From positions 213,707 through 277,706 of the forward strand of contig JACKOP010000001.1 in NCBI GenBank assembly GCA_024234165.1: a DNA stretch of 64,000 bases, written 5' to 3'. The notes under the pieces are model-generated. The model searched no databases. It saw nothing but the letters and a program-made list of their open reading frames with translations, and had not been told where the DNA came from. Of this stretch, positions 4,028 through 48,449 are shown one piece after another. Origin of the DNA: Pseudomonadales bacterium (GTDB lineage Bacteria; Pseudomonadota; Gammaproteobacteria; Pseudomonadales; UBA5518). Position numbers and translations under genes: made by a program. Each line of letters begins with the position of its first letter. Positions within the stretch are counted from its first letter, which is position 1.

Positions 4028-10903
<6,876 letters not shown>

Positions 10904-11077
10904 GAAGGATGTCCCCGGAGCGCGAATCAGTGGCGAAAAACTCTTTGTGCGTCAAGTCTAGGCGAACAAATGCATGCCCATGGACTGTACAGAAGTACTA
11001 GACGCTCCACTTGGAGCAGGACAATCGCAGCAGGCCGCGTGCAGTTGGCCGAAAATGCCGAACACGCATGAACCTGC

Positions 11078-13101: not shown

Positions 13102-15263
13102 ATGCCTCTCCCGATGCGACCCTGGCGAAGTGCTTCGATTACCGTTGCCTTGGGCCCATCGGCGACGATCTTGCCGTTGTCGATCACGATGATGCGCTCG
13201 ACGATGTCGAGCAACGAGGTCCTGTGCGTCACGACCAGCATCGTGCGATCGCTGCAGAACTCGCGCAGCTTCCTCTTGACCGTGTCTTCGCTCGAATGGT
13301 CCATTGCTGCCGTTGGCTCATCGAGCAGCAGGATGGGTGGCTTGTTGATAACGGCACGCGCGATCGCCACCCCTTCACGCTGGCCGCCGGACAGCGATTC
13401 ACCACGCTCGCCCACCGGCATATCGAACCCCTTGGGGTGCTGATTGACGAATTCCGCGATATTGCCGATGTCCGCCGAGTGCAGGATATCGGTGTCTTCC
13501 GCATGCGGCGTTCCGATCGTGAGATTCTCGCGCAGCGTGCCATAAAACAGCGTCACATCTTGCGGTACATAGCCGATGCTCCGTCGCAGTTCACCGGGTT
13601 CGAGCTGGCGCAGGTCGATCCCGTCGATCAGGACAGCCCCCGAGAGCGGGCGGTACAAGCCGAGGATCAGGCGCAACAGCGTGCTCTTGCCCGAGCCGGT
13701 GCGACCCAGAATCGCAACCTTTTCTCCGGCGCGAATGCGCAGGCTCACACCTCGCAGTGCGTTGACCTCGGTATTCGGGTACGAAAAGCCCACATCTCGA
13801 AACTCGATATCGCCGCGGAAAGACTGGCGGCTCAGGAAGCGGGCGCCGTGTGGTCGCTCCACCGGGTGAGAGACGATCTGGTCGAGCGCCTGCAACGCGG
13901 TCATGGCGTTGTGGTACTGCGTCATCAGGCCTGCAATCTGTCCCATCGGTGCGAGTGCACGCGAACCCAGCATCGAACAAGCTATGAGCCCGCCGAGCGA
14001 GAGTTGGCCCGCACCTATCAGGTAGACCCCGATGACGATTACGCTGATGATCACCAGTTGCTGCGACAGCAACGCGACGTTGATCGTCGACAAGGCCAGC
14101 ATGCGCTGTCGAGCACCCGTGTGGGCGAGAAAGCTCGCACTGCGTTCCCATCGCTTCTGCATGACGCCTTCGGCACCAAGCGTCTTGACCGTTTCAAGCC
14201 CGACCAGGCTCTCCACCAGTGTTGCATTGCGCATCGCACCAGCGCGGAAGGACGACACGGCCAACTCATGGATGCGCGTGCCGACCGTCGCTGCGTATCC
14301 GGTCACGAACAGCATCGCAAGCACTGCCGGTATCAGCATTGGCCAGGCAATCCATCCGATCACGGCCAGGAATATGACCGTGAACGGCAAATCGATCAGC
14401 GCCGTGATGGTCGCCGACGTGATGAAATCGCGCACGGTCTCGAACGAGCGCAGATTCGCGGCCAGCGAACCTACGGAGGCCGGCCGTTCCTCGAGACGCA
14501 TCCCGAGTACGCGTTCCATGATGAATGCCGACAGGGTGAGATCGACCCGCTTGCTCGCGAGATCAAGAAAGAAACCCCGCATCGAGCGCAGGGAAAAATC
14601 ACCCAGCAGTACCAGAGCCACTCCCACAGCCAGGACCCACAGGGTCTCCACGGCGTGATTGGGAACCACACGATCGTAGACATTCATCGTGAACAGCGGC
14701 AAAGCCAGCGCGAAAACATTGACCATGCCGGCTGCCAGCATCACGTCCCGATAGAGCGGCAGGTTTTGCCGCATGGCGCCCCAGAACCAGTGGGGCCCAC
14801 GCTCGATGCCGACCTCGGGGGCACGTTCGTCGAAATTGAAAGCCATGCGCGTCAACAACGCCGAGCCGAGATATCCGTCGGCGAGCACCTGCATGTCGAT
14901 CGAAGCGGGTGCATCTGCACCGCAATGCAGCACCTTGGCGCGTTCACCGTCGCGCGCCAGAAGCACACAAGCCTGCGAGTCACGCAGCAGCAGGATTGCC
15001 GGCAAGGTATCGCCGTCGAGGCGATCCAGCGAAGATTCGACAACCTTTGCTTCGAGTCCAGCCCGCTCTGCTGCGCGCAACGCGAGCGAAGGGGACAGGC
15101 GACCACGTTCCAGCGGCAGCCCCGCGATCAGGCCCTCGCGTGATACCTGCACGCCGCGCTCGCGCGCCACGTACACGAGTGCGTCGAGCAACGGATCACG
15201 AAAGAGTGGCGCATCAGGAGCGTCCGTCTCGCTTGCTGGAACGGAAGCTGAAGAATCGGGCAT
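13098..15263 (-). CDS. lapB: Type I secretion ABC transporter permease/ATPase with N-terminal C39-like domain (LapB-like)
   Basis: Track ORF of 721 aa. Walker A is GRTGSGKST, the signature is LSGGQRE and Walker B is ILLLDEPTAAMD. A six-TM region is present, and the N-terminal roughly 130 aa are peptidase-C39-like with no obvious catalytic Cys context. Confidence 0.9.
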   Translation of the reverse strand: MPDSSASVPASETDAPDAPLFRDPLLDALVYVARERGVQVSREGLIAGLPLERGRLSPSLALRAAERAGLEAKVVESSLDRLDGDTLPAILLLRDSQACVLLARDGERAKVLHCGADAPASIDMQVLADGYLGSALLTRMAFNFDERAPEVGIERGPHWFWGAMRQNLPLYRDVMLAAGMVNVFALALPLFTMNVYDRVVPNHAVETLWVLAVGVALVLLGDFSLRSMRGFFLDLASKRVDLTLSAFIMERVLGMRLEERPASVGSLAANLRSFETVRDFITSATITALIDLPFTVIFLAVIGWIAWPMLIPAVLAMLFVTGYAATVGTRIHELAVSSFRAGAMRNATLVESLVGLETVKTLGAEGVMQKRWERSASFLAHTGARQRMLALSTINVALLSQQLVIISVIVIGVYLIGAGQLSLGGLIACSMLGSRALAPMGQIAGLMTQYHNAMTALQALDQIVSHPVERPHGARFLSRQSFRGDIEFRDVGFSYPNTEVNALRGVSLRIRAGEKVAILGRTGSGKSTLLRLILGLYRPLSGAVLIDGIDLRQLEPGELRRSIGYVPQDVTLFYGTLRENLTIGTPHAEDTDILHSADIGNIAEFVNQHPKGFDMPVGERGESLSGGQREGVAIARAVINKPPILLLDEPTAAMDHSSEDTVKRKLREFCSDRTMLVVTHRTSLLDIVERIIVIDNGKIVADGPKATVIEALRQGRIGRGI

Positions 15264-34894: not shown

Positions 34895-37408
34895 ATGCGC
34901 ATGATCCAGCAAGCACCAGATGAGCACGCAACGACCGGAGTCTTGAAGGACATCCGCGTACTGGACCTTTCCTGGGGCATCGCCGGGCCGATGGCCGGCA
35001 TGATCCTTGCCGATCATGGTGCCGAAGTGATCAAGGTCGAACCTCCGGGTGGTGACCCGTTCCGCACGCAGTTGGGTTACAAGGCTTGGCAGCGAGGCAA
35101 GCGCAGTGGCGTTCTCGATCTCAAGCGTGAGGCCGACAAGGACGTACTGCTGTCTCTGGTGCGCGGCGCGGATGTACTGATCGAGAGCTTCAGTCCCGGA
35201 ACCGCCACGCGGCTGGGGATCGATTACGACTCGCTGCAGCGAATCAATCCGCGCCTGGTCTACGGGTCAATTACCGGCTACGGACGCGGCAACCCGCATT
35301 CGGACCGGCCGGGCTACGACTCCCTTGTCGCTGCGCGTACGGGTTTGCAGTGGGAATTGCGTGGCTGGCCTGAAGGTCCCGTCCGCCACATGAATGCTTT
35401 GCCCGATCTCCATCCCGAGCTCGATGTGCCACCCGGATCGGTACAAGGTCCAGAACGAGCCGGTCCGCTTTTTTCGGCGTCGAGCTGGCCCAGTCTGGGT
35501 GCATTTTTCGCGTTGGCACTGGGCATCAGCGCCGCACTGCGCGCGCGCGAAGTCACCGGGCGTGGACAATGGGTAGAGACATCCCTGCTGCAGGGTGCAT
35601 TGTGTGCCGGATCGTATGTGTGGCAGCGAGCCGAACACACCGACGTCACCGGTTTCGATTCGTGGGTATTCGGCAGCAAGGCGCCCAAGGGCCACTTCCG
35701 GTGCAAGGATGGTCGCTGGATCCACAACTGGGTACCCAACCCGCGCTTCATTCTTGCTGCCGGTGCAGGAGCCGCACTGGAAGCCACGCCGGAGCTTCGC
35801 ATCCAGAACGATCCGGATCGAATCGGAACCGAGGTCCGGGAGCTGGTCGCGTTGAGCTACTACCAACCCGCCCTGGCTGCCACTGTCGCAAAGTTCGATT
35901 CTACGCAGTGGGTTAAGGCAGCGGTCATCAGCGATATCACGCTGCAGGCTGTCAGGCCGCCCGAAGAAGCACTGGTCGATACGGAGTTTCTTCGTGATGG
36001 CTGTGTCGTCGAACTCGACGATCCCGAGCTCGGCGCGACTCGCCAGGTGGGAATCTGCCATCGCCTGCACGCCTGCCCCACATCGATCCAACACGCTGCG
36101 CCTTCGGTTGGCGAGCATACGGACGAGTTGCGAAGAGCCGCGCTTCATGCACCCCTTCCCTTCACGCCGGATCGCAGGCAACACAAGGCCCTCGCAGCGC
36201 CGCTGCAAGGCATAAGGGTGCTCGATCTGGGTGCTGCTATCGCGGGTCCCTTCGGTACGCAACTGCTTGCCGATCTGGGTGCCGAAGTCATCAAGATCAA
36301 CAACCTGTTCGACCAGGCCTGGCACCGCGTGCATATCGCATACATCGCCAATCGGGGTAAACGAAGCATTGCACTGAACATCAAGACTCGCGACGGGATG
36401 AAAGCCTTTCTCGATCTGGTGAAGAGCGCCGACGTGGTGCATCACAACATGCGTTACGACGCTGCCAGGAGGCTTGGCATCGATTACGACTCGTTGCGAG
36501 AGATCAACCCTCGGCTGATCTACTGCCACCTCCGCGGCTACGAAGACGGACCACGCCGCGCGCACCCGGGAAACGACCAGACGGGAGCCTGTCTGGCTGG
36601 AGTGCAGTATGAGGACGGCGGAATGCACGACGGGGGCAAGCCGTTCTGGAGCAACACGTCGATGGGTGACACCGGCGCCGGCTTCCTGTCGGCCATTGCG
36701 GTAGTACAGGCGATCTACCATCGTGATCGGACCGGCGAGGGACAGTTCGTCGATACGTCGATAGTGAACGCATGCCTGCTGAACACTTCCTACGCCCTCG
36801 CCCGCCCTGATGGCTCGTCCTTCGATCGACCCAGACTCGATCACATGCAGTACGGCTTTTCCGCTGGCCAGCGCCTGTACCAGACGCTGGACGGATGGCT
36901 GAGCGTGCTGTTGCTCAGCGATGCACACTGGAATGCCATGTATCGGATACTCGGCATCACCGTCGGCATGAATGCCGACCTACATGGGTCGGAGGCAAAG
37001 TACGCGGACGCTGCAGTGCAGCACCGCAACGACAGCGAACTGGCACGGCTGTTCGCGGAACGATTCAGGACGGACAGTGCGGCAGAATGGTTCCGGAAGC
37101 TGGATGCCGCCAGCGTGCCGGTCGAGATCTGCGACGCAACCTTCGCCACATCGATGCACCGCGATCCGGGATTCCACGACCGGAGATGGATCGTGTCCTT
37201 CGATCATCCGCAGGTCGGACGGCTGGAGCAGATGGGCAGCTTTGCGAACCTTTCGGATACACCCCTGGTGTTCCGCCGCAGGCCACCGATAGTCGGCGAA
37301 CACAGCGAAGAGATACTGCGTGAGCTTGGATACCGCGATGATGAGATCGCTCGGATGAAACGTGAGTCGGCGATCGGTACGGCTGCAGACGGCAGCCTGT
37401 CGAGCTGA
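34895..37408 (+). CDS. Tandem-duplicated family III CoA-transferase (two CaiB/BaiF modules in one 837-aa polypeptide)
   Basis: Track ORF. Module 1 reads IRVLDLSWGIAGPMAGMILADHGAEVIKVEPPGGDPFR...ITGYGRGNPHSDRPGYDSLVAARTG. Module 2, from about nt 36203, reads IRVLDLGAAIAGPFGTQLLADLGAEVIKINN...LRGYEDGPRRAHPGNDQTGACLAG. Confidence 0.85.
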   Translation: MRMIQQAPDEHATTGVLKDIRVLDLSWGIAGPMAGMILADHGAEVIKVEPPGGDPFRTQLGYKAWQRGKRSGVLDLKREADKDVLLSLVRGADVLIESFSPGTATRLGIDYDSLQRINPRLVYGSITGYGRGNPHSDRPGYDSLVAARTGLQWELRGWPEGPVRHMNALPDLHPELDVPPGSVQGPERAGPLFSASSWPSLGAFFALALGISAALRAREVTGRGQWVETSLLQGALCAGSYVWQRAEHTDVTGFDSWVFGSKAPKGHFRCKDGRWIHNWVPNPRFILAAGAGAALEATPELRIQNDPDRIGTEVRELVALSYYQPALAATVAKFDSTQWVKAAVISDITLQAVRPPEEALVDTEFLRDGCVVELDDPELGATRQVGICHRLHACPTSIQHAAPSVGEHTDELRRAALHAPLPFTPDRRQHKALAAPLQGIRVLDLGAAIAGPFGTQLLADLGAEVIKINNLFDQAWHRVHIAYIANRGKRSIALNIKTRDGMKAFLDLVKSADVVHHNMRYDAARRLGIDYDSLREINPRLIYCHLRGYEDGPRRAHPGNDQTGACLAGVQYEDGGMHDGGKPFWSNTSMGDTGAGFLSAIAVVQAIYHRDRTGEGQFVDTSIVNACLLNTSYALARPDGSSFDRPRLDHMQYGFSAGQRLYQTLDGWLSVLLLSDAHWNAMYRILGITVGMNADLHGSEAKYADAAVQHRNDSELARLFAERFRTDSAAEWFRKLDAASVPVEICDATFATSMHRDPGFHDRRWIVSFDHPQVGRLEQMGSFANLSDTPLVFRRRPPIVGEHSEEILRELGYRDDEIARMKRESAIGTAADGSLSS

Positions 37409-37424: not shown

Positions 37425-39704
37425 TCAGTGCGCTGAACCACGGAGCCGGAACACGAACAGCGAGTTGCCTGAACCGCTCGGCAACGGAATTTCCGGGAAC
37501 AGCGCCGCACCACTTCCCGCCTGTGCACTGTAGCCGGTCGGCACGGCGAGGTACTGCACGCCGTCGATCTGATAGGCCATCGGATAGCCACCGATCGGTG
37601 CATTGAGCCGAACCTTCCACAGCACCTCGCCCGTATCCTGGTCCAGCGCCATGAAGTAACGCCCGGCATCACCACCGAACAGCAGACCGCCACCGGTAGC
37701 GAGCAGCGAACTGCTCAGGATCGCCCGTTGTGAGTGGCGCCAGTTGCGCTCGCCGGTTGCAACGTCGATCGCATCGATGACACCCGCCTCGGTAATTCCC
37801 GGTGGCAGCACGCGCGGACCTGCCGTGACCGAACCCACGACATTGCCGGCGGTGAACTCTGCGCGCACCGGCGTCAAGGTATTACACGATTGTGCGACCG
37901 GAACGTACAGCGTGCCGGTCAACGGGCTGTACGCCGCAGCCTGCCACGACTTGCCGCCCCACAGCGACGGGCAGACGAATTTTTCCTCGCCGAGTGCCGT
38001 AGCGATCAGGCCTTCGTTGGTCTTCACCCTGCCCTTCGCATCGATACCGGTCACGACATTCTGGAAGATCGTTTCCCGGGACCAGACGAATGCGCCCGTA
38101 TCGCGATCGAGCGCGAAAACGATGCCGTTCTTGCCCGCTGCGGTGACCAGGAGGCGGCGCGGCTTTCCGTCGACCGTCGCATCGATCGGCATGCGCTCGA
38201 ACGGGCTGTCCATGTCCCAGTTGTCGCGCGGCAGGTGCTGGTAATGCCAGCGGCGCTTGCCCGTATCCGCATCCAGCGCCAGGGTGCTGTTGGTGTACAG
38301 CAGACTTCCCTTGCCGGAGCCGCGCAGCAGTTCCGGGTATGGGCCCGGCTGGCCGGTACCCCAGAAGGTGGTGTTCGTGCGCGGATCGTAGGAACCGGTT
38401 GCCCACGCCGTGCCGCCCCAGCGGTTAGCCGCTGGCACGCCACCCCAGGAACGCTGCTGCTCGGGGTTCTGCGGATCATCGATGATGTTGAAGCGCCACA
38501 GTTCACGACCGCTTTCGAAGTCATGCGCCATGATGTAACACCCACCGGCGGTGGAAGAGATCGAACACCCTCCCACTCCGGAGAGGATCTTGCCGTTCAC
38601 GACGAGCGGGCCAACCGTATACACGTAGCCACGCGTGTGATCCAGCACGCGCGTTTCCCGCACCACGCGTCCGCTGAGTGCATCGAGCACGACCAGCCGG
38701 GCGTCCGCGGTCGCGAGCACGAGCTTGTCCTGGTAGAGCGCAATCGATCCCTTCTGTCGTCGCGCCTGGTAACGCTGGTATCCCCAGGACGGTGGAAGCT
38801 CGGCCAGCGCCGGGCGGAACTCCCAGATCAGATCGCCCGACGCGGCGTCGAGCGCCTGCACCACGTCGTCGGTAGTCGCAATGAACATGATTCCGTCGTG
38901 GACCAGCGGTGCCGTCTGCTGCTGCCCTCCTTCGGCCATCGGCCATGCCCAGGCAAGCTCGAGGTCGGCAACATTGTTCCGGTCGATCTGCGCGAGCGGA
39001 CTGTAGCCGTAGACGCTCAGGGTACCGCGGGACATCAGCCATTCGCCGGGCGGTGGATCGAGCAGCATGGCGTCGCTGACCGGTTCATAGTGACGATCGG
39101 GGTGCACCACGGCATGACCCGCCGCCGAGTCGATGCGGTCCGGAATCGCGATCGTGACTTTTGCGGCCTCTACCGCCGCCTTGTCGTGTACGGAATGGTG
39201 CAACGGCAATTCGCTGCCCCAGGTGAATGCCTGCGGGACGGCGGTGTCATCCTGACTTGCGATATCGGCGTTCTTGTTTTCCGCGTCCGGCTCCACTGGC
39301 AACAGACTTCCCAGATCGATGGATGCCAGATCGTTACGGCCAAGCTCATGGTCGCCGGTACGGGCTCCGTTCACGCTGAGTATGTAGGCCGTGATATCGA
39401 GGTAGTGCTGCTGTTCCAAGCGTCCCGGTGCGAATGGCGGCATGCTTCTGGACAGATAGTCGTGAAGACGATCGGCCGAGCCGAACTTTTGCGCAAACGC
39501 CCGACCCGCGAGTGCCGGGGCGTCGCGCCCCTGCAGCGTGGCACCGTGGCACATCGCACACTTCTCGCCGTAAAGCGCCAGTCCTCGCCGTGCCTGTGCC
39601 ACACTGAGCACGCCCGCCGTTGCCGGTTCCACACAGATCCCGGGTGACGCGAACGCCGCGATCAGCGTGCCCACCGCGAGGCGAACGAGGGGCAGTACCC
39701 GCAT
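37425..39704 (-). CDS. PQQ-dependent dehydrogenase (methanol/ethanol family beta-propeller) with N-terminal cytochrome c domain
   Basis: The real start is ATG 39704 (MRVLPLVRLAVGTLIAAFASPG, a signal peptide). The heme motif is CAMCHG. Propeller strings are LAWAWPMAEGGQQQTAPLVHDGIMFIATTDDVVQALDAASGDLIWEF, GGTAWATGSYDPRTNTTFWGTGQPGPY and LALDADTGKRRWHYQHLPRDNWDMD. Confidence 0.82.
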   Translation of the reverse strand: MRVLPLVRLAVGTLIAAFASPGICVEPATAGVLSVAQARRGLALYGEKCAMCHGATLQGRDAPALAGRAFAQKFGSADRLHDYLSRSMPPFAPGRLEQQHYLDITAYILSVNGARTGDHELGRNDLASIDLGSLLPVEPDAENKNADIASQDDTAVPQAFTWGSELPLHHSVHDKAAVEAAKVTIAIPDRIDSAAGHAVVHPDRHYEPVSDAMLLDPPPGEWLMSRGTLSVYGYSPLAQIDRNNVADLELAWAWPMAEGGQQQTAPLVHDGIMFIATTDDVVQALDAASGDLIWEFRPALAELPPSWGYQRYQARRQKGSIALYQDKLVLATADARLVVLDALSGRVVRETRVLDHTRGYVYTVGPLVVNGKILSGVGGCSISSTAGGCYIMAHDFESGRELWRFNIIDDPQNPEQQRSWGGVPAANRWGGTAWATGSYDPRTNTTFWGTGQPGPYPELLRGSGKGSLLYTNSTLALDADTGKRRWHYQHLPRDNWDMDSPFERMPIDATVDGKPRRLLVTAAGKNGIVFALDRDTGAFVWSRETIFQNVVTGIDAKGRVKTNEGLIATALGEEKFVCPSLWGGKSWQAAAYSPLTGTLYVPVAQSCNTLTPVRAEFTAGNVVGSVTAGPRVLPPGITEAGVIDAIDVATGERNWRHSQRAILSSSLLATGGGLLFGGDAGRYFMALDQDTGEVLWKVRLNAPIGGYPMAYQIDGVQYLAVPTGYSAQAGSGAALFPEIPLPSGSGNSLFVFRLRGSAH

Positions 39705-39715
39705 CACGCGTGGTT

Positions 39716-40156
39716 TCACTGCGCCTTGCGTACCGTATGCAGGTAATTCACGAGATGCCAGGTATCGGTCTCGCTGATCGTGTCGCCCCAGGCAGGCATC
39801 GCAAGACTCGGCTCGATGCCGTTCTGTATCACGTCGAAAACGTCGCCGTCGGCGGTGCCATAGCGATACTGCGGCAACGTCAGATTTGCCGGACGCTTGC
39901 CGTAGTCGCCAACACCGCGACCGTGGCCGTCGGCCTTCTCGCCATGGCATGCCGCGCACATGGCCAGATAGATCCCGTGTCCAGCCGCCACTGACGCTTC
40001 AGTCGCTGGCACGGGATTCTTCATGGCGGCACCCTCGGGTGTTCCCCCGAGTGGCGTGCCCTGTGCACCGGCCGGTTCGATACCGGCGAATGCCAACAGC
40101 ACGGCAAGAGCCGTCGCGGCAATCAGCGCATTGCGTTCAGTGGTCGGTGTGCCCAT
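39716..40156 (-). CDS. Small periplasmic c-type cytochrome (146 aa)
   Basis: The real start is ATG 40156 (MGTPTTERNALIAATALAVLLAFAG). The heme motif is CAACHG, with a distal Met context in SLAMPAWG. Confidence 0.82.
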   Translation of the reverse strand: MGTPTTERNALIAATALAVLLAFAGIEPAGAQGTPLGGTPEGAAMKNPVPATEASVAAGHGIYLAMCAACHGEKADGHGRGVGDYGKRPANLTLPQYRYGTADGDVFDVIQNGIEPSLAMPAWGDTISETDTWHLVNYLHTVRKAQ

Positions 40157-40197
40157 CACGTCTACCCTCCTCCCTACCGATACAAGGCTCTGATCCC

Positions 40198-42357
40198 TCA
40201 CTTCGCAAGCGGATTCGGACGCAACTGGAACTTCACTATGCGCGAGTTTGTGTCCGGCCCTTCGATGTGTGTCGTGGCCAGTGTGCCGTAGTTCGCCCAC
40301 AGCGCACGTCCCTTCCAGCCGGTGCGTGGATCGTCGATTCGGCCATCGAGTCCGCGCGCATAGAAGCCGAGCGGATACGGTACGCGCAGCGTCACGAAGC
40401 TCTTGCTTTCGGGCTGGAATACCAACAGCGAGTCCGAGGTGCTTCCCGGCATGATCGGCAGGTCCTTGCCGATGCCAAGCACCTCGTGCTGGTCGACCCA
40501 AGTCAGATAGTGCCAGTCGGCACTGCCCGTCGTGACGCCCTTGAAGCGCGGGCCAGGGGTATCGAAGAAGCTCCAGCCTTCCTGACAATGCTGCCCGGTG
40601 GCGTCGGGCCCGCTCGGGGCCTTGCACTGACGACGATCGAAACGCCCCAACCGACCGCTGCCGAGCGCAACCCACGCCACACCATCGCTGTCGAGATCGA
40701 CGCCGCGCGGATTGAACGCCACCGCCTTGCCGTCTTTCACCGGGATCTCGTAGTACTCGATGCGACAGGTTTCGGGCGGATTGTCGCCACGCACGAAGCG
40801 CATCAGGCCTCCCGGCACGCCTGGCATCCAGTCGTTGATGAAGTACGTATAGCGCGCGTACCAGACGCTGTCATCGAGCGGGCTCACGCCCATGCCGTAA
40901 AGGAAACCGGCGAGGCGCTTGTCCTTCTTGGGATCGTCTGGCTCACCCGGGTTCGTCCACGCGCCGATGCGCCCGTCACCGTTCGTGTCCAGGACCATCG
41001 GGCACCAGCCCGTCGAGGCCTCTGCACTGCCGGTACGATCGAACGTACGCGTATCCACCCAGCCGATCGCCTGCGTATCGCCGCTCAGATAAAGCGTGCG
41101 TCCTGCGTCGTGGCCAAACTGCAGATGGTGCGTCCCGAAGCAGGTATCGATGAGGTCGAAGCGCCCGGTTTCCGGGTTGTAGACCGATACCTGGCGAAGA
41201 CTTCCATTCGGCGCAGCGAGCGGGAAGAACTTCGCATAACGGTTCGACGGATCGGTACAGAACGAAGGACTTTTTTCCGGATCGCGAATCGCGGAGGTGA
41301 TCCACACCCGTCCCGTCTCGTCGAACATGGGGTTGTGCGGAGTCGAACTGACGGCCGGATCCTGCGTCGGTACCGGCACTTCGGCTACGGTGTTCGTTTT
41401 TGGATCCACCCATACCAGCTTGTGACCGTTGTCCCCACGCGTCGATACGCCGTAGACCCGACCTCCTGCGTTGAGCGTCGGTTGCCGCTTGTCGGTGCTG
41501 ATCTCATCATGGATCATCGCTCCGCCTGCCCAGTCCCACAGCGTGAGCACGAGGTTGCGCTCCAGTCCTGCCGGACGCGGCGGCGCTGCAGCGGGCACCT
41601 CACCCGCAGCGATGCGATCCGTCCAGTTGGCAAACTCCTTGATGCCCCGACGCCCGAACTGACCCATCAGGCTGCTCATGTACGGTCCATTGGGCCCCTT
41701 GGTGATGCGATGCGCCCAGGCAGCGGTCGAAGAGTCGAACTTGCCGAGGTCAGCCGGGATCTCGCGAGTCGCCTTGCTGCCGAGCTGATGGCAGAACGAG
41801 CACATTTCCTTGACCTGGTAGATCCAGTGACCTTGCGTCAGCATGGCGGCGGAGATGCCATTGCCACGGTTGCCCGTACCAGGAAATTCGCTTTCCGCCG
41901 GAATATGCAGCAACGACAGCCAGTAATTGGCCGGGTAGTACTGAGCGGCAGCTCGTGGATCGGGTGCTACAACTGCCTGTAGATCGAGGTTCTTGCCGGG
42001 TACTGCGTTCACCGGCTGGGAATCGACCAGGCCGTAGCCGCGCACCCACACGCGATAGCTGGCCTTGGGCAGATCCGGTATCAGATAACGGCCCTTGTCA
42101 TCGGTCACCACGATCTTTGCGAACCGCGTCGGCAGATCGCGTGTCTCGGCGATCACCCACACGCCCGCTTCCAGACCCTGCGGACTGCGCACGACGCCGC
42201 CGATATCGTCCCTGTCGATCGCAACGCGTGCGTACGCCGTCGTCGCCGAAAACACCGTCGACGACAGCAGGAGCGTGAGTGCCAGACGCACACACCCCGA
42301 CCATGCAGCCGCGGCTGTGGAGAACGGAAACTTATTTTTCATTGTCGTGCACCTCAT
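40198..42357 (-). CDS. Secreted CarboxypepD_reg-like domain protein with a single CxxCH heme motif and a propeller-like C-terminal region
   Basis: Track ORF of 719 aa; ATG 42342 is an alternative start. The N-terminal domain reads IGGVVRSPQGLEAGVWVIAETRDLPTRFAKIVVTDDKGRYLIPDLPKASYRVWVRGYG. The heme motif is CSFCHQLG. Repeated D-x-x-G-x-V-W-type blades follow (DETGRVWITS, DSDGVAWVAL). Confidence 0.7.
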   Translation of the reverse strand: MRCTTMKNKFPFSTAAAAWSGCVRLALTLLLSSTVFSATTAYARVAIDRDDIGGVVRSPQGLEAGVWVIAETRDLPTRFAKIVVTDDKGRYLIPDLPKASYRVWVRGYGLVDSQPVNAVPGKNLDLQAVVAPDPRAAAQYYPANYWLSLLHIPAESEFPGTGNRGNGISAAMLTQGHWIYQVKEMCSFCHQLGSKATREIPADLGKFDSSTAAWAHRITKGPNGPYMSSLMGQFGRRGIKEFANWTDRIAAGEVPAAAPPRPAGLERNLVLTLWDWAGGAMIHDEISTDKRQPTLNAGGRVYGVSTRGDNGHKLVWVDPKTNTVAEVPVPTQDPAVSSTPHNPMFDETGRVWITSAIRDPEKSPSFCTDPSNRYAKFFPLAAPNGSLRQVSVYNPETGRFDLIDTCFGTHHLQFGHDAGRTLYLSGDTQAIGWVDTRTFDRTGSAEASTGWCPMVLDTNGDGRIGAWTNPGEPDDPKKDKRLAGFLYGMGVSPLDDSVWYARYTYFINDWMPGVPGGLMRFVRGDNPPETCRIEYYEIPVKDGKAVAFNPRGVDLDSDGVAWVALGSGRLGRFDRRQCKAPSGPDATGQHCQEGWSFFDTPGPRFKGVTTGSADWHYLTWVDQHEVLGIGKDLPIMPGSTSDSLLVFQPESKSFVTLRVPYPLGFYARGLDGRIDDPRTGWKGRALWANYGTLATTHIEGPDTNSRIVKFQLRPNPLAK

Positions 42358-42359
42358 CC

Positions 42360-44528
42360 TCAGAAACGGTAGCTTGCATCCAGGCCGTAGCTGCGTGGAT
42401 CACCGAACAGACCGACTGGTACCGGACCAAAGCCCCAGTGGGTGGCCAGGTACTCCTTGTCCGCAAGATTCTTGCCCCAGATCGCAAGCTCGAGGCCCTC
42501 GATCCCGGCTGTGTCCAGCAAAGCGACGCGTGCATTCACCAGTCCGTACGAGTCGACGATCAGGTTCGGCTGCGAGGTCACGCCAAAGAACTTGTCCTGC
42601 CACAAGTAATTCACGTTGACCTGTACCGTACCGATCGGAGTCTCGGGTGAGGTGTAATCCGCGTTGATCGAATAGCTGGTCTTCGGTGCGTGAGGAAACC
42701 TGAACATCGAGGTGATGTCGTTTCCGCCCAGGTCGACCACTTCCTTGAACTCCGGATCGATATGGCCATAACTGGCGCTGACGACCAGTCCGGTGACCAC
42801 GAGCACGCTCAGGTCCGCCTCGACCCCCTTGATCTTCGCCTTGCCCGCGTTGATGACGTCGAAGATCCGGGTATTGTTCGGGTTGAACACGTTGGTCTGG
42901 ATATCGTCGTAGTCGCTGTAGAACACGGTTGCGTTGAAGCGCACACGCCGATCGAGAAACTCCGATCTGAGACCCGCTTCGTACGAGATCAGGCTTTCAG
43001 GGCCAAATCCTGCCGCAAAGGCAGCAGAGGTACTCGCGGTCGGGTTGAAGCCGCCGGTCTTGTACCCTTCTGCGATCCGGGCGAACACGTTGACGCTGTC
43101 GGTGATATCGAATTGCACCGATCCGGACAGGCTGGTGTCACTGAAGCTGCGCGAGCCATTTCCTTGCAGGACAAGGGCCGGTGGTTGGTTACCGATCACG
43201 GAAAAGCCCAGCACGCTGGCGTCGCGCTTGTCCCACGATCTGCGCGCACCGAGCGTGATATGCAGCCTGTCGTCGAGGATGGCCGGTGTCCAGGTGCCTT
43301 CCCCGAACACCGCGTAGGCCTTGTTCTTCCAGTCGAAATTTCGCGGTCCCTGGAAGCCAGTGATGAAGGTATTGTTGCCGCCATCACCGGATTCGTCGAA
43401 GTAGTAGATACCCCCGACGTATTTGAGCCGATCCTCCAGCGTGTTGCCGATGAACTGCAGCTCTTCGCTGAACTGCTTCTGGTCGGTCCAGGCTTCGTTA
43501 TACAGTGGCAAGAGGAAAGGAATCACCGGTCCCGGGTTGTATGCCTGATTGGTCTTGTCGATGAGGTCGCGGTAGCCGGTGATCGAGCGGATCGTCAGGT
43601 TGTCCGAGACTTCGTAGCTCATCGTCAGGTTGTGTCCGCGAATACGCGAGTCGGCTGGCCGCAGCGCCTTCCACCCGGCATTGCCATGGCTGGGGCGTTT
43701 CGCCGACCCCGGGTAATATGGCACCTGTGCCACGTACAGCGAGGTATCACCCAGCCACGTTGCATCGAAGGTGTAGCGAAGCTGGAACTCCGCCAGGGGC
43801 TCCCACAGCAGTGCGCCCCTGAGCCCCTTGCGGTCAACATCGCCGAAGCGCTTGCTGCCCGGGCCGTGGTTGTCGATGAAACCGTCCTTCAGGACACGCG
43901 CATAGGTAAGATTGAGCGCAGCCGTTTCGCCAAGCGGAACATTGATCGACGAACGCGACCTGAACTCGTCGAAGCGTCCGAACGTGAAGCTCTGCTGTCC
44001 ACCGAACTCACCCAGAATCGGTGCCTTGGTGATGAAGTTGATCGCACCGGCGGTGGCATTGCGGCCGTACAGGGTGCCTTGTGGGCCACGCAGCACCTCG
44101 ATGCGCTCCAGCTCAGCCAAGTCGCTGCCCAGTCCCTGTCCGCGACCGACGTATACGCCATCCACGTAGACGGCAACGGGATTGTCACGTGTCTGTACCG
44201 CCGACGCTTCACCGATGCCCCGAATCATCGCACGTACCGTGGTTCCGGTATTCGGGTGGGGGGAAATCTGCAGGTTGGGAATCACCGCCATCATGTCCGG
44301 AAGGGAGGCGATCTTCCTTCGTTCGAGCATTCCGCTATCCAGGGCAGCGATCGAGATCGGCGTATCCTGGAGACTTTCCTCGCGCTTCTGAGCGGTAACC
44401 ACGATTTCCTCGAGCCCGGCCGTTGCCGTCTCCTGCGCACCGACCGGCAGCGAGAACACCGGCATCACGCAGATCGCAGTAAGCAACCGTCCAACGGACA
44501 CCGAAAGCAGAGTGCGACGAGCAAACAT
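42360..44528 (-). CDS. TonB-dependent receptor
   Basis: The real start is ATG 44528 (MFARRTLLSVSVGRLLTAICVMPVFSLPVGA). The plug region reads EEIVVTAQKREESLQDTPISIAAL...IEVLRGPQGTLYGRNATAGAINF. The C-terminus ends in YGLDASYRF with a terminal Phe. Confidence 0.9.
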   Translation of the reverse strand: MFARRTLLSVSVGRLLTAICVMPVFSLPVGAQETATAGLEEIVVTAQKREESLQDTPISIAALDSGMLERRKIASLPDMMAVIPNLQISPHPNTGTTVRAMIRGIGEASAVQTRDNPVAVYVDGVYVGRGQGLGSDLAELERIEVLRGPQGTLYGRNATAGAINFITKAPILGEFGGQQSFTFGRFDEFRSRSSINVPLGETAALNLTYARVLKDGFIDNHGPGSKRFGDVDRKGLRGALLWEPLAEFQLRYTFDATWLGDTSLYVAQVPYYPGSAKRPSHGNAGWKALRPADSRIRGHNLTMSYEVSDNLTIRSITGYRDLIDKTNQAYNPGPVIPFLLPLYNEAWTDQKQFSEELQFIGNTLEDRLKYVGGIYYFDESGDGGNNTFITGFQGPRNFDWKNKAYAVFGEGTWTPAILDDRLHITLGARRSWDKRDASVLGFSVIGNQPPALVLQGNGSRSFSDTSLSGSVQFDITDSVNVFARIAEGYKTGGFNPTASTSAAFAAGFGPESLISYEAGLRSEFLDRRVRFNATVFYSDYDDIQTNVFNPNNTRIFDVINAGKAKIKGVEADLSVLVVTGLVVSASYGHIDPEFKEVVDLGGNDITSMFRFPHAPKTSYSINADYTSPETPIGTVQVNVNYLWQDKFFGVTSQPNLIVDSYGLVNARVALLDTAGIEGLELAIWGKNLADKEYLATHWGFGPVPVGLFGDPRSYGLDASYRF

Positions 44529-44599
44529 GGACAGGTTCCCCTTTGACGTTCTGGACTGTTGTCGTGAGAACCGAACGTAGCACGCCAAGCGTCCCGGGT

Positions 44600-44621
44600 G
44601 CATCATGCGAATGCATGATGC
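44600..44621. promoter_or_regulatory. Perfect 9-4-9 palindrome GCATCATGC-GAAT-GCATGATGC in the TonB-receptor/sulfatase divergent intergenic region
   Basis: Read directly from the sequence. It lies 72 nt upstream of the receptor start and 186 nt upstream of the sulfatase start. It is a candidate operator, and the regulator is unknown. Confidence 0.4.
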
Positions 44622-44806
44622 GACGCAGGTTGCCGATAGCCCAGAGAACGGGACAACAGAAAACGGTCGAGGGAACTCGAGTCCGACCGTTGCCACTCCC
44701 CCCTATTGCCCTGCCCGCCGCTGTCCGCTATCGTCCGGGCTTCACCAAGTGCTCAAATCATGACGCGGCCGAGAGTTCGTCCCTCGCCCCGCCGGAACAA
44801 AAGTCG

Positions 44807-47128
44807 ATGCCGATGGACAGTTACTTTATCGCCACGACGTACCGCGGACTCGCACGCAGGTGCATGGCCGTATGTTTCGGCATCACCAGCGTTCTCGCCG
44901 CCCTGTCCGCAGCCGCCGACACGCCACCGTCCATCCCCCATATCCAGGCCCTCGCAGGGGCCCCGAACATAGTGCTGGTACTGCTCGACGATGTCGGTTT
45001 CGGCGCTACGTCTACCTTTGGCGGTCCGGTGGCCGCTCCGGCGCTCGATGCGCTGGCTCGCGAGGGCTTGCGCTACAACCGTTTCCACACCACCGCCATC
45101 TGCTCCCCGACGCGCGCATCGCTGCTCACCGGTCGCAACCCCCATGCCGCCAACGTGGGCGCGGTTCTGAACTCTTCCAATGCCTACCCGGGCTATCAGG
45201 GCGTGCTGCGCAAGGAAACCACCACCATCGCGGAACTGCTGCGCCGCAATGGCTACAGTACCGCGGCCATCGGCAAGTGGCACCTGACCCCCGTCTGGGA
45301 AACCTCGCCCTCGGGCCCGTTCGACCGCTGGCCGACCGGGCTCGGCTTCGAGAAGTTCTACGGGTTCCTGGGAGGTGAGACCGACCAGTTCGAACCCACG
45401 CTCTACGAGGGCACCACGCCGGTTCGTCGCCCCCCGGGTGAGGGCTATCACCTGAGCGAGGACATGGCCGATCAGGCGATCGCGTGGCTGCACGCCCAGC
45501 ACTCCATCACTCCCGACAAGCCGTTCCTGCTGTATTTCGCGCCTGGCGGCACGCACGCTCCGTTGCAGGTGCCCAAGGACTGGATCGAGCGGTACCGGGG
45601 CCAATTCTCCGGAGGCTGGGATGCACTGCGACAGCAGATCTTCCGCCGCCAGCAGCAACTCGGCGTGATCCCCGCGAATGCCGAGCTTACGGCTCGCCCC
45701 GCGGAACTGCCCGCCTGGGACAGCCTGAACCGGGACCAGCAGATCGTGGCCGAACGTCTGATGGAAGCTTACGCCGGCTTCCTCGCGCACACCGACGCGC
45801 AGGTCGGCCGCCTGGTGCAGGCGTTGAAGGACTCCGGCCAGTTCGACAACACGCTGTTCGTCTACATCGCCGGCGACAACGGCAGCAGCGCCGAAGGCGG
45901 GCTCGAGGGCAGCATCAACTACAGCGGCGCACTGCAGGGACTGCGCGAACCGCTGGCCACGCAGCTCGCACGCCTGGAGGACATCGGCGGACCCGACACT
46001 TTCCCGCAATACAACGCGGGCTGGGCCTGGGCGCTGACCACGCCTTTCCAGTGGGTGAAGCAGGTGGCTTCACATCTGGGCGGCACCCGCAACCCAATGG
46101 TCGTGAGCTGGCCGGCGCGGATCGCTGACCGCGGAGGCCTGCGCAGCCAGTTTGCGCATGTGAACGACATCACGCCGACGATTCTCGACGCGGTCGGGCT
46201 CGCAATGCCGGAGCAAGTGGACGGCGTGGCGCAACGGCCGCTGGACGGTGCCAGCCTGTTGCCGAGCATCCTGCGCGCCGACGCCCCGGAGCACAAGTCC
46301 ACCCAGCTGTTCGAGGTGCACGGCCACCGGGCGATCTACCACGACGGCTGGCTGGCGTCGGCGCGTCACGACCGCCTGCCCTGGACCGTCGGCCTGCGCA
46401 TGGGGCCGACGCCGTTCGAGGATGATGTGTGGGAGCTGTATCACCTCGACGAGGATTTCAGTCAGGCCCGCAACCTGGCCGCGCAGATGCCGGACAAGTT
46501 GCGCGCGATGCAGGCACTGTTCGACCAGGAGGCGCAACGCCTTGGCATCTTGCCGTTGCGCAGCTCGCTCGACACGCGTACTCCGATGCCGAACCTGAGC
46601 GAGGGACGAACCGAATTCACGTACTACGCCGGCACGGTCGGGATCCCGGAGAGCCAGGCACCGCAGTTTGTCAGTCGCTCGTGGGAGCTGCGTGCCACCC
46701 TCGACATTCCGGAGGGCGCGGGTATCGTCCGCGGAGTGATCGCTACCGTCGGTGGAACGGTCGGCGGCTGGTCATTGCACCTCGACGGCGGCGGCAAACC
46801 GGTGTTCGAGTACCGCGCCTTCGAACTGGGCAGACTGCGCCTCGCTGGTCCACAGGCGCTCGCACCGGGACGGCACACGCTGCGGCTGGAGTTCGCCTAC
46901 GACGGCGGTGGCTACGCGAAGGGTGGGACGTTCACCCTGAGCGATGGCGAGCGCGTACTCGGCCAGGAACGCATCGCAGTCACCCCACCCTCGCACTTCT
47001 CGATCGACGAGACCTTCGACATCGGCACCGACACCGGTTCGCCTGCCGGACGCTATCCTGCGGGAGTTCCGGTCGGCAATCCATTGACGGGGGCAGCGAT
47101 CGCGCGCGTGGATATCGAACTGCGCTGA
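44807..47128 (+). CDS. Arylsulfatase (Cys-type, formylglycine-dependent)
   Basis: The real start is ATG 44807 (MPMDSYF..., with a signal peptide). The sulfatase signature is CSPTRASLLTGRNPH, preceded by NIVLVLLDDVGFG, with GKWHLT further on. Confidence 0.9.
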   Translation: MPMDSYFIATTYRGLARRCMAVCFGITSVLAALSAAADTPPSIPHIQALAGAPNIVLVLLDDVGFGATSTFGGPVAAPALDALAREGLRYNRFHTTAICSPTRASLLTGRNPHAANVGAVLNSSNAYPGYQGVLRKETTTIAELLRRNGYSTAAIGKWHLTPVWETSPSGPFDRWPTGLGFEKFYGFLGGETDQFEPTLYEGTTPVRRPPGEGYHLSEDMADQAIAWLHAQHSITPDKPFLLYFAPGGTHAPLQVPKDWIERYRGQFSGGWDALRQQIFRRQQQLGVIPANAELTARPAELPAWDSLNRDQQIVAERLMEAYAGFLAHTDAQVGRLVQALKDSGQFDNTLFVYIAGDNGSSAEGGLEGSINYSGALQGLREPLATQLARLEDIGGPDTFPQYNAGWAWALTTPFQWVKQVASHLGGTRNPMVVSWPARIADRGGLRSQFAHVNDITPTILDAVGLAMPEQVDGVAQRPLDGASLLPSILRADAPEHKSTQLFEVHGHRAIYHDGWLASARHDRLPWTVGLRMGPTPFEDDVWELYHLDEDFSQARNLAAQMPDKLRAMQALFDQEAQRLGILPLRSSLDTRTPMPNLSEGRTEFTYYAGTVGIPESQAPQFVSRSWELRATLDIPEGAGIVRGVIATVGGTVGGWSLHLDGGGKPVFEYRAFELGRLRLAGPQALAPGRHTLRLEFAYDGGGYAKGGTFTLSDGERVLGQERIAVTPPSHFSIDETFDIGTDTGSPAGRYPAGVPVGNPLTGAAIARVDIELR

Positions 47129-47222
47129 GGCCCTGGGCACGTCGATCGCGGCCATGCGGGCCTCGACGCCGCCCCGTCGACCGGCAGCAGCGCCTGCTCG
47201 TAGGGTTGGAGTGTGCAGATTG

Positions 47223-48449
47223 TTAAGCAACATCAAATACGATTGGCATCTCCTTGATTCCATGGATGAAGTTTGACCTCAGCCATTTGATGTCACCGTT
47301 CAGTTGCGGATTGCGAATGTGCTTCACGATCTCCTCGAACACGATATTCAGTTCGAGGCGTGCGAGGTGGCTCCCCAGGCAGAAATGCTCGCCGATACCG
47401 AAGGCACGGTGCTCATTACGAACGTCTTCGCGTCGCGGGCGCGTGATGTCGAAATTGTCCGGCTCCTCGAACAATGCTTCATCGCGGCTCGCTGCCTGGT
47501 AGAACATCTGGATCTTGTCACCGGGTTCGAGTGGCTGGCCGCCCACCTCGACCGGCTCGGTCACGGTACGCCGGAAGCTGATCACGGCCGGGTTGAAGCG
47601 CAGTATTTCCTCGACTGCGTCCGGGATCAGCGAAGGATCGTCGACCAGCATCTGGTATTGCTCCGGATGCTCCATCAACAGGCGCATGCCATGGCTAGTC
47701 ATGGTGCGGGTCGTTTCGTTGCCTGCGACGATCAGCAGCATCATGAAATTGCGGAATTCGTCTTCGCTCAGATGTTCGCCGGCCACCGTTCCTCGCAGCA
47801 GTGCCCCGACGATATCGTCGCGCGGATCCGCACGGTGCTGCTCCATGACCTTGTCCGAGTACATGTACAGCTCGGCAGCTGCCATCTGCGCTGCCTCGGG
47901 CGTGGTCGACAGATCAGGGTCGTCGGCTCCGAGCATGATGTTGGTCCACTCGAAGAACTTGCTGCGATCCTCGATCGGCACCCCGAGAATCTCGCAGATC
48001 GCGATCAGCGGCAGCACGCACGCGATCTCGGTGACGAACTCGCATTCGCCGCGCGCCAGCACCGCTCCAACCGCATCACGCACGATCTGGCGAAAACGGG
48101 GTTCGTACGATTCGACCTTTGCCGGTGTGAAGGCGTTGCGGATGATGCGCCGGTACTTGATGTGCTCCGGCGGATCCATGTTGATGATCATCGTACGCAG
48201 CATTTCCACCTGATCGGGTGGCACGTCGTTCAGGAAGCAGGTCTTGGCCGCAGACGAGAACTGCAGCGGGTGTTTCGATATGTAGTCGACGTCTTCCTGT
48301 CTGAAGAAAGCCCAGAAACCTTCGCCTCCCGTCATCGGTTGATCGATGCGCACCGACCGCGCTGCACGCAGATCCCGATAGAGATCGGCTGGAACGCCGC
48401 CGCAGTGGAGATCAGGACTGCTGAGATCGGCATACGGACACGAAGCCAT
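47223..48449 (-). CDS. Cytochrome P450
   Basis: Track ORF of 408 aa. The I-helix is VAGNETT, the ExxR motif is EEILRF and the heme loop is FGIGEHFCLGSHLA. Confidence 0.92.
   Translation of the reverse strand: MASCPYADLSSPDLHCGGVPADLYRDLRAARSVRIDQPMTGGEGFWAFFRQEDVDYISKHPLQFSSAAKTCFLNDVPPDQVEMLRTMIINMDPPEHIKYRRIIRNAFTPAKVESYEPRFRQIVRDAVGAVLARGECEFVTEIACVLPLIAICEILGVPIEDRSKFFEWTNIMLGADDPDLSTTPEAAQMAAAELYMYSDKVMEQHRADPRDDIVGALLRGTVAGEHLSEDEFRNFMMLLIVAGNETTRTMTSHGMRLLMEHPEQYQMLVDDPSLIPDAVEEILRFNPAVISFRRTVTEPVEVGGQPLEPGDKIQMFYQAASRDEALFEEPDNFDITRPRREDVRNEHRAFGIGEHFCLGSHLARLELNIVFEEIVKHIRNPQLNGDIKWLRSNFIHGIKEMPIVFDVA

Follow-up and report, generated by a model that had tools for sequence, protein, structure and literature searches.

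Uptake through a TonB-dependent receptor (TBDR) followed by oxidation by a periplasmic quinoprotein is an established bacterial attack on bulky compounds such as polyethylene glycol (PEG) and polyvinyl alcohol (PVA). The pva operon of Sphingopyxis sp. 113P3 and Pseudomonas sp. VM15C (PvaA, PvaB) encodes a PVA dehydrogenase (PVADH), a hydrolase, and a cytochrome c (PMC11644497; PMC6472588), and in the peg operon of Sphingopyxis and Sphingomonas the TBDR PegB feeds a periplasmic PEG dehydrogenase (PMC11644497). Here we analyzed an operon in a 64,000-nucleotide stretch of DNA, called the window throughout, from a Pseudomonadales bacterium of the UBA5518 lineage (GenBank assembly GCA_024234165.1, contig JACKOP010000001.1, positions 213,707 to 277,706). 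It encodes a TBDR, a secreted haemoprotein here called X, a small cytochrome c, and a quinohaemoprotein, that is, a pyrroloquinoline quinone (PQQ) dehydrogenase with its own haem c domain. Like the pva operon, it combines a periplasmic PQQ quinohaemoprotein, a putative second enzyme, and a soluble cytochrome c, but the second enzyme of the pva operon is a serine hydrolase that attacks the polymer oxidized by the dehydrogenase, whereas that of the window is the haem-propeller protein X, and the window adds a TBDR. With the peg operon it shares a TBDR joined with a periplasmic dehydrogenase for a bulky compound; in contrast, PegA depends on flavin adenine dinucleotide (FAD) rather than on PQQ and haem, and the peg operon has neither an X-like protein nor cytochromes. 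The overall design is thus not new. The new part is X, from a common yet unstudied family; the dehydrogenase also stands out by an aspartate signature and by a domain order that is the reverse of that in type II quinohaemoprotein alcohol dehydrogenases (ADHs). We give about even credence to the reading that the operon carries out TonB-driven import and then periplasmic oxidation feeding the respiratory chain, with X as a second cytochrome-c-linked enzyme.

The four genes form a real operon (Table 1). In the mechanical list of open reading frames (ORFs) they lie on the minus strand at 42360-44696, 40198-42357, 39716-40675, and 37425-39959. With the ATG starts chosen in a preliminary description of the window, made from its letters alone, the products are 722, 719, 146, and 759 amino acids (aa) long, and the called genes of a 95%-identical relative (locus L001) encode 722, 714, 146, and 764 aa. 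The gaps between the genes are 2, 41, and 11 nucleotides (nt). Because X homologues are 714 aa long, the true start of X is probably the second ATG, which would give a gap of 17 nt after the TBDR gene, the same as in L001. A Sec-type signal peptide is present on each of the four products, which predicts one outer-membrane and three periplasmic proteins, and each haem protein has exactly one CxxCH motif (CSFCH at residue 186 of X, CAACH at 67 of the cytochrome, and CAMCH at 49 of the dehydrogenase). The preliminary description had reported four co-directional minus-strand genes with gaps of at most 3, 41, and 11 nt, of which three consecutive ones encode periplasmic proteins with c-haem motifs. 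We found all of these features, and its gene calls and domain assignments were upheld, with Pfam scores below cut-off for the two N-terminal domains of X. The operon's closest relatives come from activated-sludge metagenomes.

Table 1. Coordinates of the operon and of features near it (window positions)
Feature	Position	Strand	Remarks
TonB-dependent receptor (TBDR)	42360-44528	minus	722 aa; first gene of the operon
X (secreted haemoprotein)	40198-42357	minus	719 aa with the start first chosen; probably 714 aa, start 42342
Cytochrome c	39716-40156	minus	146 aa; soluble periplasmic mono-haem protein
Quinohaemoprotein (PQQ) dehydrogenase	37425-39704	minus	759 aa
Perfect 8+4+8 palindrome CATCATGC-ATTC-GCATGATG	44601-44620	none	read from the sequence; ~80 nt upstream of the TBDR start
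Strain-specific 2.54-kb indel carrying the arylsulfatase	44682-47223	plus	DNA alignment with L001
Arylsulfatase	~44807-47128	plus	Pfam Sulfatase, E = 6e-66; not part of the module
Cytochrome P450, CYP125/CYP124/CYP142-like	47223-48449	minus	408 aa; PDB matches; context gene outside the conserved trio
Fused double family-III coenzyme A (CoA)-transferase	34895-37408	plus, convergent with the operon	837 aa; Pfam CoA_transf_3 twice, E = 1.5e-166

X is predicted to consist of a CarboxypepD_reg Ig-like domain (approximately residues 52-128), a class-I-like cytochrome c domain (approximately 135-255), and a seven-bladed beta-propeller (approximately 269-712). The CarboxypepD_reg model (PF13620) matched the window protein weakly (22.4 bits versus a cut-off of 32.3) and matched all 50 family members that were scanned (best E = 1.1e-7), and Cytochrome_CBB3 reached only 17.1 bits versus 27 in X and was matched in 15 of the 50. 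The haem site, C186xxC189H190 with Met227, was invariant in 50 of 50 homologues, so the CxxCH motif is not a chance occurrence. An AlphaFold2 model of X (predicted local distance difference test score, 88.2; predicted template modeling score, 0.89) contains a beta-sandwich at 52-118, a cytochrome-like region at approximately 134-268 that is helical from 175 to 250, and approximately 28 strands arranged as seven four-stranded blades from 269 to 712. The preliminary description of X as a protein with a CarboxypepD_reg-like domain, a single CSFCH (186-190), and propeller-like repeats agrees with these results. Among the same 50 sequences the residues H283/D284, H341, H410/H411, Y487, R551/D554, W620/D622, R668/D671/R673, H697, and E699 are invariant, as are six non-haem cysteines and a DTNGDG loop. 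Most of the invariant residues map to the starts of the innermost strands of successive blades in the strand list of the model, which would place a ring of His, Asp, Arg, and Tyr around the central funnel, the usual position of the active site in propeller enzymes. This ring suggests that the propeller holds a metal- or cofactor-binding active site.

The X model was compared with the PDB by Foldseek, which returned generic propellers only. The best target TM-scores were 0.64-0.71, for seven-bladed proteins such as Gbeta, Ycf48, and YncE, and the lactonase Drp35 and soluble glucose dehydrogenase (sGDH) were among the best E-values. Apart from CarboxypepD_reg, the Pfam scan of the 50 members gave only weak cytochrome, SGL (7 of 50), and NHL matches. 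Vgb_lyase (PF24684) matched neither X nor any of the 50, and one divergent member, P0264, matched it at 1e-9 with 38 bits versus a threshold of 50. When X was aligned by hhalign with the neighboring family that combines CarboxypepD_reg, CxxCH, and a Vgb/SGL propeller, the match was at the level of blades only (probability, 8.6%). A second, shorter family of approximately 560-590 aa with CarboxypepD_reg, one CxxCH, and a Vgb/SGL-like propeller often adjoins X (L009, L030, L032, and L090) and resembles it only blade by blade. Judged by sequence, the nearest repeat type of the X propeller is the Vgb-lyase/SMP-30 kind, yet X is not a member of those families. Vgb lyase has seven blades. The Vgb lyase and SMP-30 propellers (PF24684 and PF08450) share the blade sequence pattern of X and its invariant central His, Asp, and Tyr but have neither a haem nor a CarboxypepD_reg domain, and X differs from them in its six extra invariant cysteines and its Ca-loop-like DTNGDG. 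In cytochrome cd1 nitrite reductase, a class-I cytochrome c domain feeds a beta-propeller within one periplasmic chain, the propeller of NirS having eight blades and haem d1. Its likeness to X is one of architecture only, with no sequence or fold-level match in the Foldseek and PDB profile searches. We also considered X as a six-bladed PQQ sugar dehydrogenase (sGDH/AA12) and rejected this, as there was no Pfam GSDH match, the TM-scores with 5min were 0.26/0.38, and X has seven blades. Literature searches combining carboxypeptidase regulatory-like domains with PQQ, lanthanides, cytochromes, propellers, or TonB, and Vgb lyase with cytochromes, returned nothing on the X family; the lanthanide PQQ enzymes of one such report are six-bladed sGDH-type proteins and not X (bioRxiv 10.64898/2026.07.10.737718). 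The preliminary description had said that X had no known function and had named Foldseek as a check. The latter produced generic seven-bladed folds and no known enzyme family, and Pfam, NCBIfam, the PDB, Foldseek, and the literature yielded neither a family nor a solved structure nor a publication for X.

The X family proved to be widespread. A homologue search gave at least 8,000 matches, the best 120 of which were 50-95% identical to X over near full length, and X is present in at least 590 species genomes (590 of 600 listed stretches were confirmed) from about eight phyla, with approximately 50% identity between phyla. The hosts include Vicinamibacterales and other Acidobacteriota, Gemmatimonadota, Gamma- and Alphaproteobacteria, Bacteroidota, Phycisphaerae (Planctomycetota), Binatia, and Verrucomicrobiia (Verrucomicrobiota). 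Several copies per genome are common. Tandem or nearby paralogues (approximately 50-55% identical) occur in L006, L009, L026, L038, L059, L063, L078, and L095/L100, and Acidobacteria bacterium UBA2990 has three X loci. Cultured hosts of X homologues include Microvirga ossetica V5/3m (BB934_RS38235) and Negadavirga shengliensis CGMCC 1.12768 (L037). The family is also unusually tight, because just 20-30 or so full-length X clusters were found among the 1,868 matches (E up to 1e-30) to 1.84 billion 50%-identity representatives. Divergent representatives were scanned for domain fusions, and one Ig-like extension and one probable chimera with an alpha/beta hydrolase were found, neither of which gave a clue to the chemistry of X.

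X, the 146-aa cytochrome, and the quinohaemoprotein (hereafter, the trio) are encoded together wherever the X homologue is at least 72% identical, in five to six lineages, with identities to the window proteins of 72-95%, 66-93%, and 61-93%, respectively. Orthologues of both partners are present in L001 (X identity, 95%), L095/L100 (85%), L096 (72-74%), L101 (73%), and L085 (73%), where two transketolase genes separate the cytochrome gene from the dehydrogenase gene, and in L108 (72%) the cytochrome gene is present and the contig ends after it. Both orthologues are absent from L097 (63%), L087 (58%), and L089 and L090 (54%), and none of the 80 genomic and 24 metagenomic loci whose X is approximately 46-54% identical carries the trio. 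That the trio was inherited together in five to six lineages argues for a functional coupling of its members. The 146-aa protein is a class I cytochrome c with a single CAACH and a signal peptide (Cytochrome_CBB3, PF13442, E = 7.6e-14, 52.2 bits versus a cut-off of 27; Cytochrom_C, PF00034, E = 2e-7, 32.7 bits versus 21.3), and it matched the models of the quinoprotein acceptors cytochrome c550 PedF and cytochrome cL only weakly (PedF, 25.7 versus 122 bits; MoxG, 19.6 versus 147.8 bits). Since its orthologues always lie directly 3' of X in these homologues, it is most likely the redox partner of X and the common link to the respiratory chain.

The genes flanking the trio change completely between lineages, so that it looks like a portable cassette that has been joined with different receptors and cytoplasmic pathways. 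In L085 it is flanked by a membrane-bound glucose/quinate-type PQQ dehydrogenase (987 bits), three short-chain dehydrogenases/reductases (SDRs), and a split transketolase, and in L095/L100 by an X paralogue, a thiamine pyrophosphate (TPP) enzyme, another small cytochrome, and a fused CoA-transferase. Receptor genes are adjacent to the trio in L001 and L096 and lie five genes upstream of it in L085; receptors also occur near X in L087 and L089.

In the distant X loci, the only strongly recurrent neighbor was an eight-bladed PQQ-type dehydrogenase of one of several subfamilies. It was found at 20 of 78 loci, against approximately 1.4 expected on the assumption of approximately 4.5 PQQ enzymes per genome, a figure taken from 2,107 such enzymes in 472 genomes (bioRxiv 10.64898/2026.07.10.737718). 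Twelve of these PQQ-type genes lie within 3 kb of X, all of them co-directional with it. Looser recurrent neighbors were DUF1592/DUF1552/ankyrin triplets, a family of approximately 320 aa, NHL and YVTN propellers, amidohydrolases, and metallo-beta-lactamase (MBL)-fold proteins. The approximately 320-aa family was the second most common neighbor and had no match in Pfam, NCBIfam, or the PDB. The genes for DUF1592 (PSD/PSCyt, CxxCH-bearing), DUF1552 (HXXSHH), and ankyrin proteins form a set near X and PQQ-type dehydrogenases in L018, L022, L035, L072, L038, L076, L012, and L026, from Acidobacteriota and Gammaproteobacteria, and DUF1552 and DUF1592 co-occur in 6 loci versus 0.8 expected. L026 (Gammaproteobacteria bacterium UWMA-0302) carries at 4413-13606 a tightly packed series of an X paralogue, an amidohydrolase, a PQQ-type dehydrogenase, X, and a P450. 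This P450 is only 28% identical to that of the window, making L026 an independent second case of X beside a PQQ dehydrogenase and a P450.

The dehydrogenase consists of a signal peptide, an N-terminal cytochrome c domain (Cytochrome_CBB3, E = 2.7e-9 over residues 36-108), a linker, and an eight-bladed PQQ propeller at approximately 205-754 (PF01011, E = 6.8e-68 over residues 222-542). The haem c domain of PVADH reportedly also lies N-terminal to the PQQ domain, according to Hirota-Mamoto et al. in 2006; no annotated PVADH was among the best 60 matches listed in a plasmid search. The closest PDB relatives were 9m2c, sorbose dehydrogenase 4mh1, the Pseudogluconobacter saccharoketogenes PQQ alcohol dehydrogenase (PQQ-ADH) 4cvb, and the PQQ-dependent ADH 7wmd (E approximately 1e-102 to 1e-105). 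All four align end to end with residues 192-754 or so and share the eight-bladed domain, the PRDNWD motif, and the Cys pair, but lack the cytochrome domain. Sequence comparison thus places the enzyme in the sorbose-DH/PQQ-ADH/DepA clade, sister to the methanol/ethanol family. Type II quinohaemoprotein ADHs (1kb0, 1kv9, and 1yiq; E, 1e-61 to 1e-70) likewise join a PQQ propeller to one haem c, but their cytochrome domain is C-terminal, whereas that of the window enzyme is N-terminal, and the window enzyme falls below the cut-off of the methanol/ethanol model TIGR03075. In the window subfamily PRDNWD(M/L)DSPFER is invariant, and the catalytic Asp, D497, is followed by D499 (D497-M-D499) in 13 of 13 members, in contrast to the solved relatives, which have Glu at the second position. 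An extra Asp two residues past the catalytic Asp marks lanthanide-dependent enzymes (XoxF, ExaF, and PedH versus MxaF/PedE), and D497-x-D499 is therefore a possible lanthanide signature.

Very common dehydrogenases of approximately 585 aa that have no cytochrome domain (Devosia, Sphingobium, Pelagibacterium, and others) share 60-67% identity with the PQQ domain, and a 67%-identical quinohaemoprotein is labelled Steroidobacteraceae. In Sphingobium, a separate gene directly upstream of the 64%-identical orthologue encodes a 173-aa cytochrome c that is 43% identical to the N-terminal domain of the window dehydrogenase. Because the domain exists there as a separate, adjacent gene, the window enzyme is a gene fusion, and this is good evidence by sequence comparison that the N-terminal haem is the dedicated first electron acceptor of the dehydrogenase. 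The orthologues of the dehydrogenase in L098 and L099, from Sphingobium and a further genome, have a conserved gene neighborhood of major facilitator superfamily (MFS), (cytochrome c), MBL-fold, glutathione S-transferase, rhodanese, and TonB receptor genes, together with TauD or sulfate-transporter genes and aminotransferases, an organosulfur-looking context that the window does not share.

The TBDR has a signal peptide (MFARR...VGAQE) followed by a TonB-box-like EEIVVTA, a Plug domain (PF07715, E = 5.8e-19, 69 bits versus a cut-off of 23.9), a TonB_dep_Rec_b-barrel (PF00593, E = 2.2e-42, 146.9 bits versus 27), and a C terminus, ...ASYRF, that ends in an aromatic residue. Its scores with the NCBIfam siderophore, B12, and PqqU models were all below cut-off (TonB-siderophor, the best, 187.5 versus 223.5 bits; BtuB, 86.9 versus 599.7; PqqU, 57.8 versus 1200), and its PDB matches include YncD/PqqU. 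The nearest annotated relatives are catabolic-type receptors of sphingomonads (46-47% identity), one of which, from Sphingobium sp. TomTYG65, lies among genes for a 3-oxosteroid 1-dehydrogenase, an SDR, an MFS protein, and a molybdopterin oxidoreductase. The palindrome upstream of the receptor gene is conserved in L001 and may be an operator. Further upstream, at 44667-44680, a weak stem-loop and T-run lies just within the segment conserved in L001, at the end of the P450 gene of L001, and may be the P450 terminator.

In the mechanism that we propose, the receptor would carry into the periplasm a compound that porins do not admit because of its size or hydrophobicity. There the dehydrogenase, given its clade, would oxidize a hydroxyl group on it. 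Electrons would pass from PQQ to the N-terminal haem c of the dehydrogenase, a step supported by the separate Sphingobium gene, then to the soluble cytochrome c, and from there to the terminal oxidase of an aerobic respiratory chain. X would be a second periplasmic enzyme whose c-type haem exchanges electrons with the 146-aa cytochrome, and, by parallel with the pva operon, its substrate would most plausibly be that of the dehydrogenase or the product formed from it, which X might oxidize further or cleave. The uptake-plus-oxidation system of the preliminary description thus stands in part: conservation of the trio argues for coupling, but the receptor is not a conserved partner and the neighboring genes are not part of the module.

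Several observations weigh against this reading. Receptors that accompany the trio share just 26-33% identity from one lineage to the next and are not orthologous, and L095/L100 has no receptor within 9 kb, so that the receptor may be an interchangeable add-on to the trio. Of the four-gene module that the preliminary description had treated as one unit, the trio is therefore the syntenic part and the receptor is not. Its suggested check of co-occurrence across genomes also went against a general four-gene synteny, the point on which it had said that its reading would fall: the trio is missing from approximately 100 loci in which X is no more than 63% identical, with neither this cytochrome nor this receptor adjoining X, which often stands alone, and this argues that the core function of X is independent of these partners. 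The putative metal or cofactor site is read solely from conservation and from the secondary-structure string of the model. No Pfam or NCBIfam model matched the propeller of X, the Pfam scan of the 50 family members adding only the weak SGL and NHL matches, and PDB searches, whether made with X alone or with a profile of 50 sequences, gave nothing but noise from the Ig domain of SdrD. The dehydrogenase scored 392.3 bits with TIGR03075, below its cut-off of 480.05, and the 64-kb window contains no pqq or ccm genes.

Of the other ways of explaining the locus, one concerns the receptor, which might import not a substrate but a cofactor of the enzymes (a lanthanide chelate, PQQ, or iron/haem), so that the operon would be a quinoprotein system with its own cofactor supply. 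The D497-x-D499 lanthanide mark would fit this, as would the receptor's best NCBIfam match to a siderophore subfamily, the YncD/PqqU match, and the precedent of lanthanide receptors adjoining PQQ genes (bioRxiv 10.64898/2026.07.10.737718). We nevertheless consider it unlikely, given that every specific receptor model stayed below cut-off, that the closest annotated receptors belong to sphingomonad catabolic clusters, and that receptors so divergent beside an orthologous trio, with one lineage lacking any, would be unexpected for a conserved cofactor importer. It is highly improbable that the genes are periplasmic catabolic genes that just happen to lie side by side and serve no common pathway. 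The neighborhoods of X homologues are indeed very varied, and the flanks differ by lineage (a P450; SDRs and transketolase; a TPP enzyme), but the three orthologues have kept their order and strand through five to six lineages, down to 72% identity, in spite of these changed surroundings, and they are separated by gaps of only 11-41 nt.

The remaining alternatives concern the chemistry of X. It could be a hydrolase or lyase that cleaves the oxidized product of the dehydrogenase, like oxidized-PVA hydrolase or a lactonase, with the haem serving only as a docking site or relay. The gene order parallels the pva operon, the blades resemble those of Vgb-lyase and SMP-30/gluconolactonase propellers (the SGL, P0264, and hhalign results above), and Drp35 and soluble glucose dehydrogenase appear among the best Foldseek E-values. 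This remains rather unlikely in our estimation, because for a pure hydrolase it would be expensive to keep the haem site and its Met ligand invariant even where no dehydrogenase gene is near; the dedicated cytochrome follows X even where two genes part it from the dehydrogenase (L085), and every SGL and Vgb match is below its family threshold. Electrons might instead run in the opposite direction, from the dehydrogenase and cytochrome to X as a reductase or an oxygen- or peroxide-activating enzyme, in the way that a PQQ pyranose dehydrogenase acts as electron donor to a lytic polysaccharide monooxygenase (PMC6472588). The His-rich invariant center (H283, H341, H410, H411, and H697) could hold Cu or Fe, and X associates with PQQ dehydrogenases across phyla, but X resembles no known copper or iron oxygenase fold or motif in the Foldseek and profile searches and most family members have no adjacent dehydrogenase, which makes this proposal improbable. 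We rank a redox-coupled enzymatic role for X ahead of both cleavage and electron consumption because the haem site is invariant throughout the family, a dedicated cytochrome is retained, and the center of the propeller is predicted to carry invariant residues of catalytic type.

The genes around the operon were examined for hints of a substrate. The preliminary description had noted a divergent arylsulfatase gene with a P450 gene beyond it, and both are present, but its guess of sulfated or aromatic polymers was not supported. In L001, 13 bp replace the 2.54-kb segment between the P450 stop and the region upstream of the receptor, which is thus, from the DNA alignment, a recent insertion or deletion. 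An arylsulfatase carried on such an indel, and lacking in a 95%-identical relative, is a poor guide to the substrate, and we rejected it as a clue. A sulfatase gene adjoins X in one Vicinamibacterales locus, L049. The P450 gene is on the strand of the operon and is directly upstream of the receptor gene in L001. Its best PDB matches were an ancestral reconstruction of CYP125 (E = 4e-111), CYP124 (E = 4e-76), and the steroid C26-monooxygenase CYP125 (E = 2e-73). Enzymes of the CYP125/CYP124/CYP142 type hydroxylate steroids at C26 or methyl-branched lipids, which makes lipid or sterol-like compounds a better guess than aromatic polymers. The PDB relatives of the fused CoA-transferase are formyl-CoA and succinate-hydroxymethylglutarate CoA-transferases and alpha-methylacyl-CoA racemases, and family-III CoA-transferase homologues also occur near X homologues in L095/L100, L089, and L107. 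Beyond the CoA-transferase gene are genes for an MFS transporter, a GlcD-like FAD oxidase, and a DUF1254/DUF1214 protein. For the window lineage, a lipid, sterol-like, or isoprenoid alcohol is weakly suggested as the substrate by the P450, the fused CoA-transferase, and the receptor, which has a 47%-identical relative in a cluster of steroid genes. In other lineages the trio sits with polyol- or sugar-type genes.

The remainder of the window is ordinary chromosome, with genes for ribonucleotide reductase, a Pol III alpha-like protein, transaldolase, a PHO4/PhoU pair, and a Lap-type adhesin system. A 2,291-aa ORF (4028-10903, minus strand) contains approximately 4.7 kb of near-perfect 9/18-nt repeats at 5755-10426, in which approximately 260 copies of an 18-nt unit code for approximately 1,550 residues of (Thr-Thr-Ala/Pro)n. 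These Thr-rich repeats cause a local GC content of 0.70 and an AT skew of -0.8. Since the flanking genes (797-1654, 1690-3639, and 11689-13101) encode a LapD-like GGDEF/EAL receptor, a BTLCP (LapG-like) protease, and an HlyD-type protein, the ORF probably encodes a giant Lap-type, type-I-secreted adhesin with an extreme Thr/Ala spacer.

The statistical link of X to PQQ dehydrogenases and its constant pairing with a cytochrome in this clade provide a concrete hypothesis for the X family, and X, the cytochrome, and the quinohaemoprotein constitute a defined three-protein system. Tentatively, and with more doubt than confidence, we propose that X may stand for a previously unrecognized and very widespread class of redox enzymes of the periplasm, in which a c-haem domain is wired to a seven-bladed propeller with a metal or organic cofactor in its His/Asp/Arg/Tyr ring and which, across many phyla of bacteria from soil and sludge, works with eight-bladed PQQ dehydrogenases. 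If this is true, the window operon would be the most tractable entry to the chemistry of X. Knowledge of the activity of X could put a function to thousands of genes from soil and wastewater metagenomes and could reveal a missing step in periplasmic oxidation pathways.

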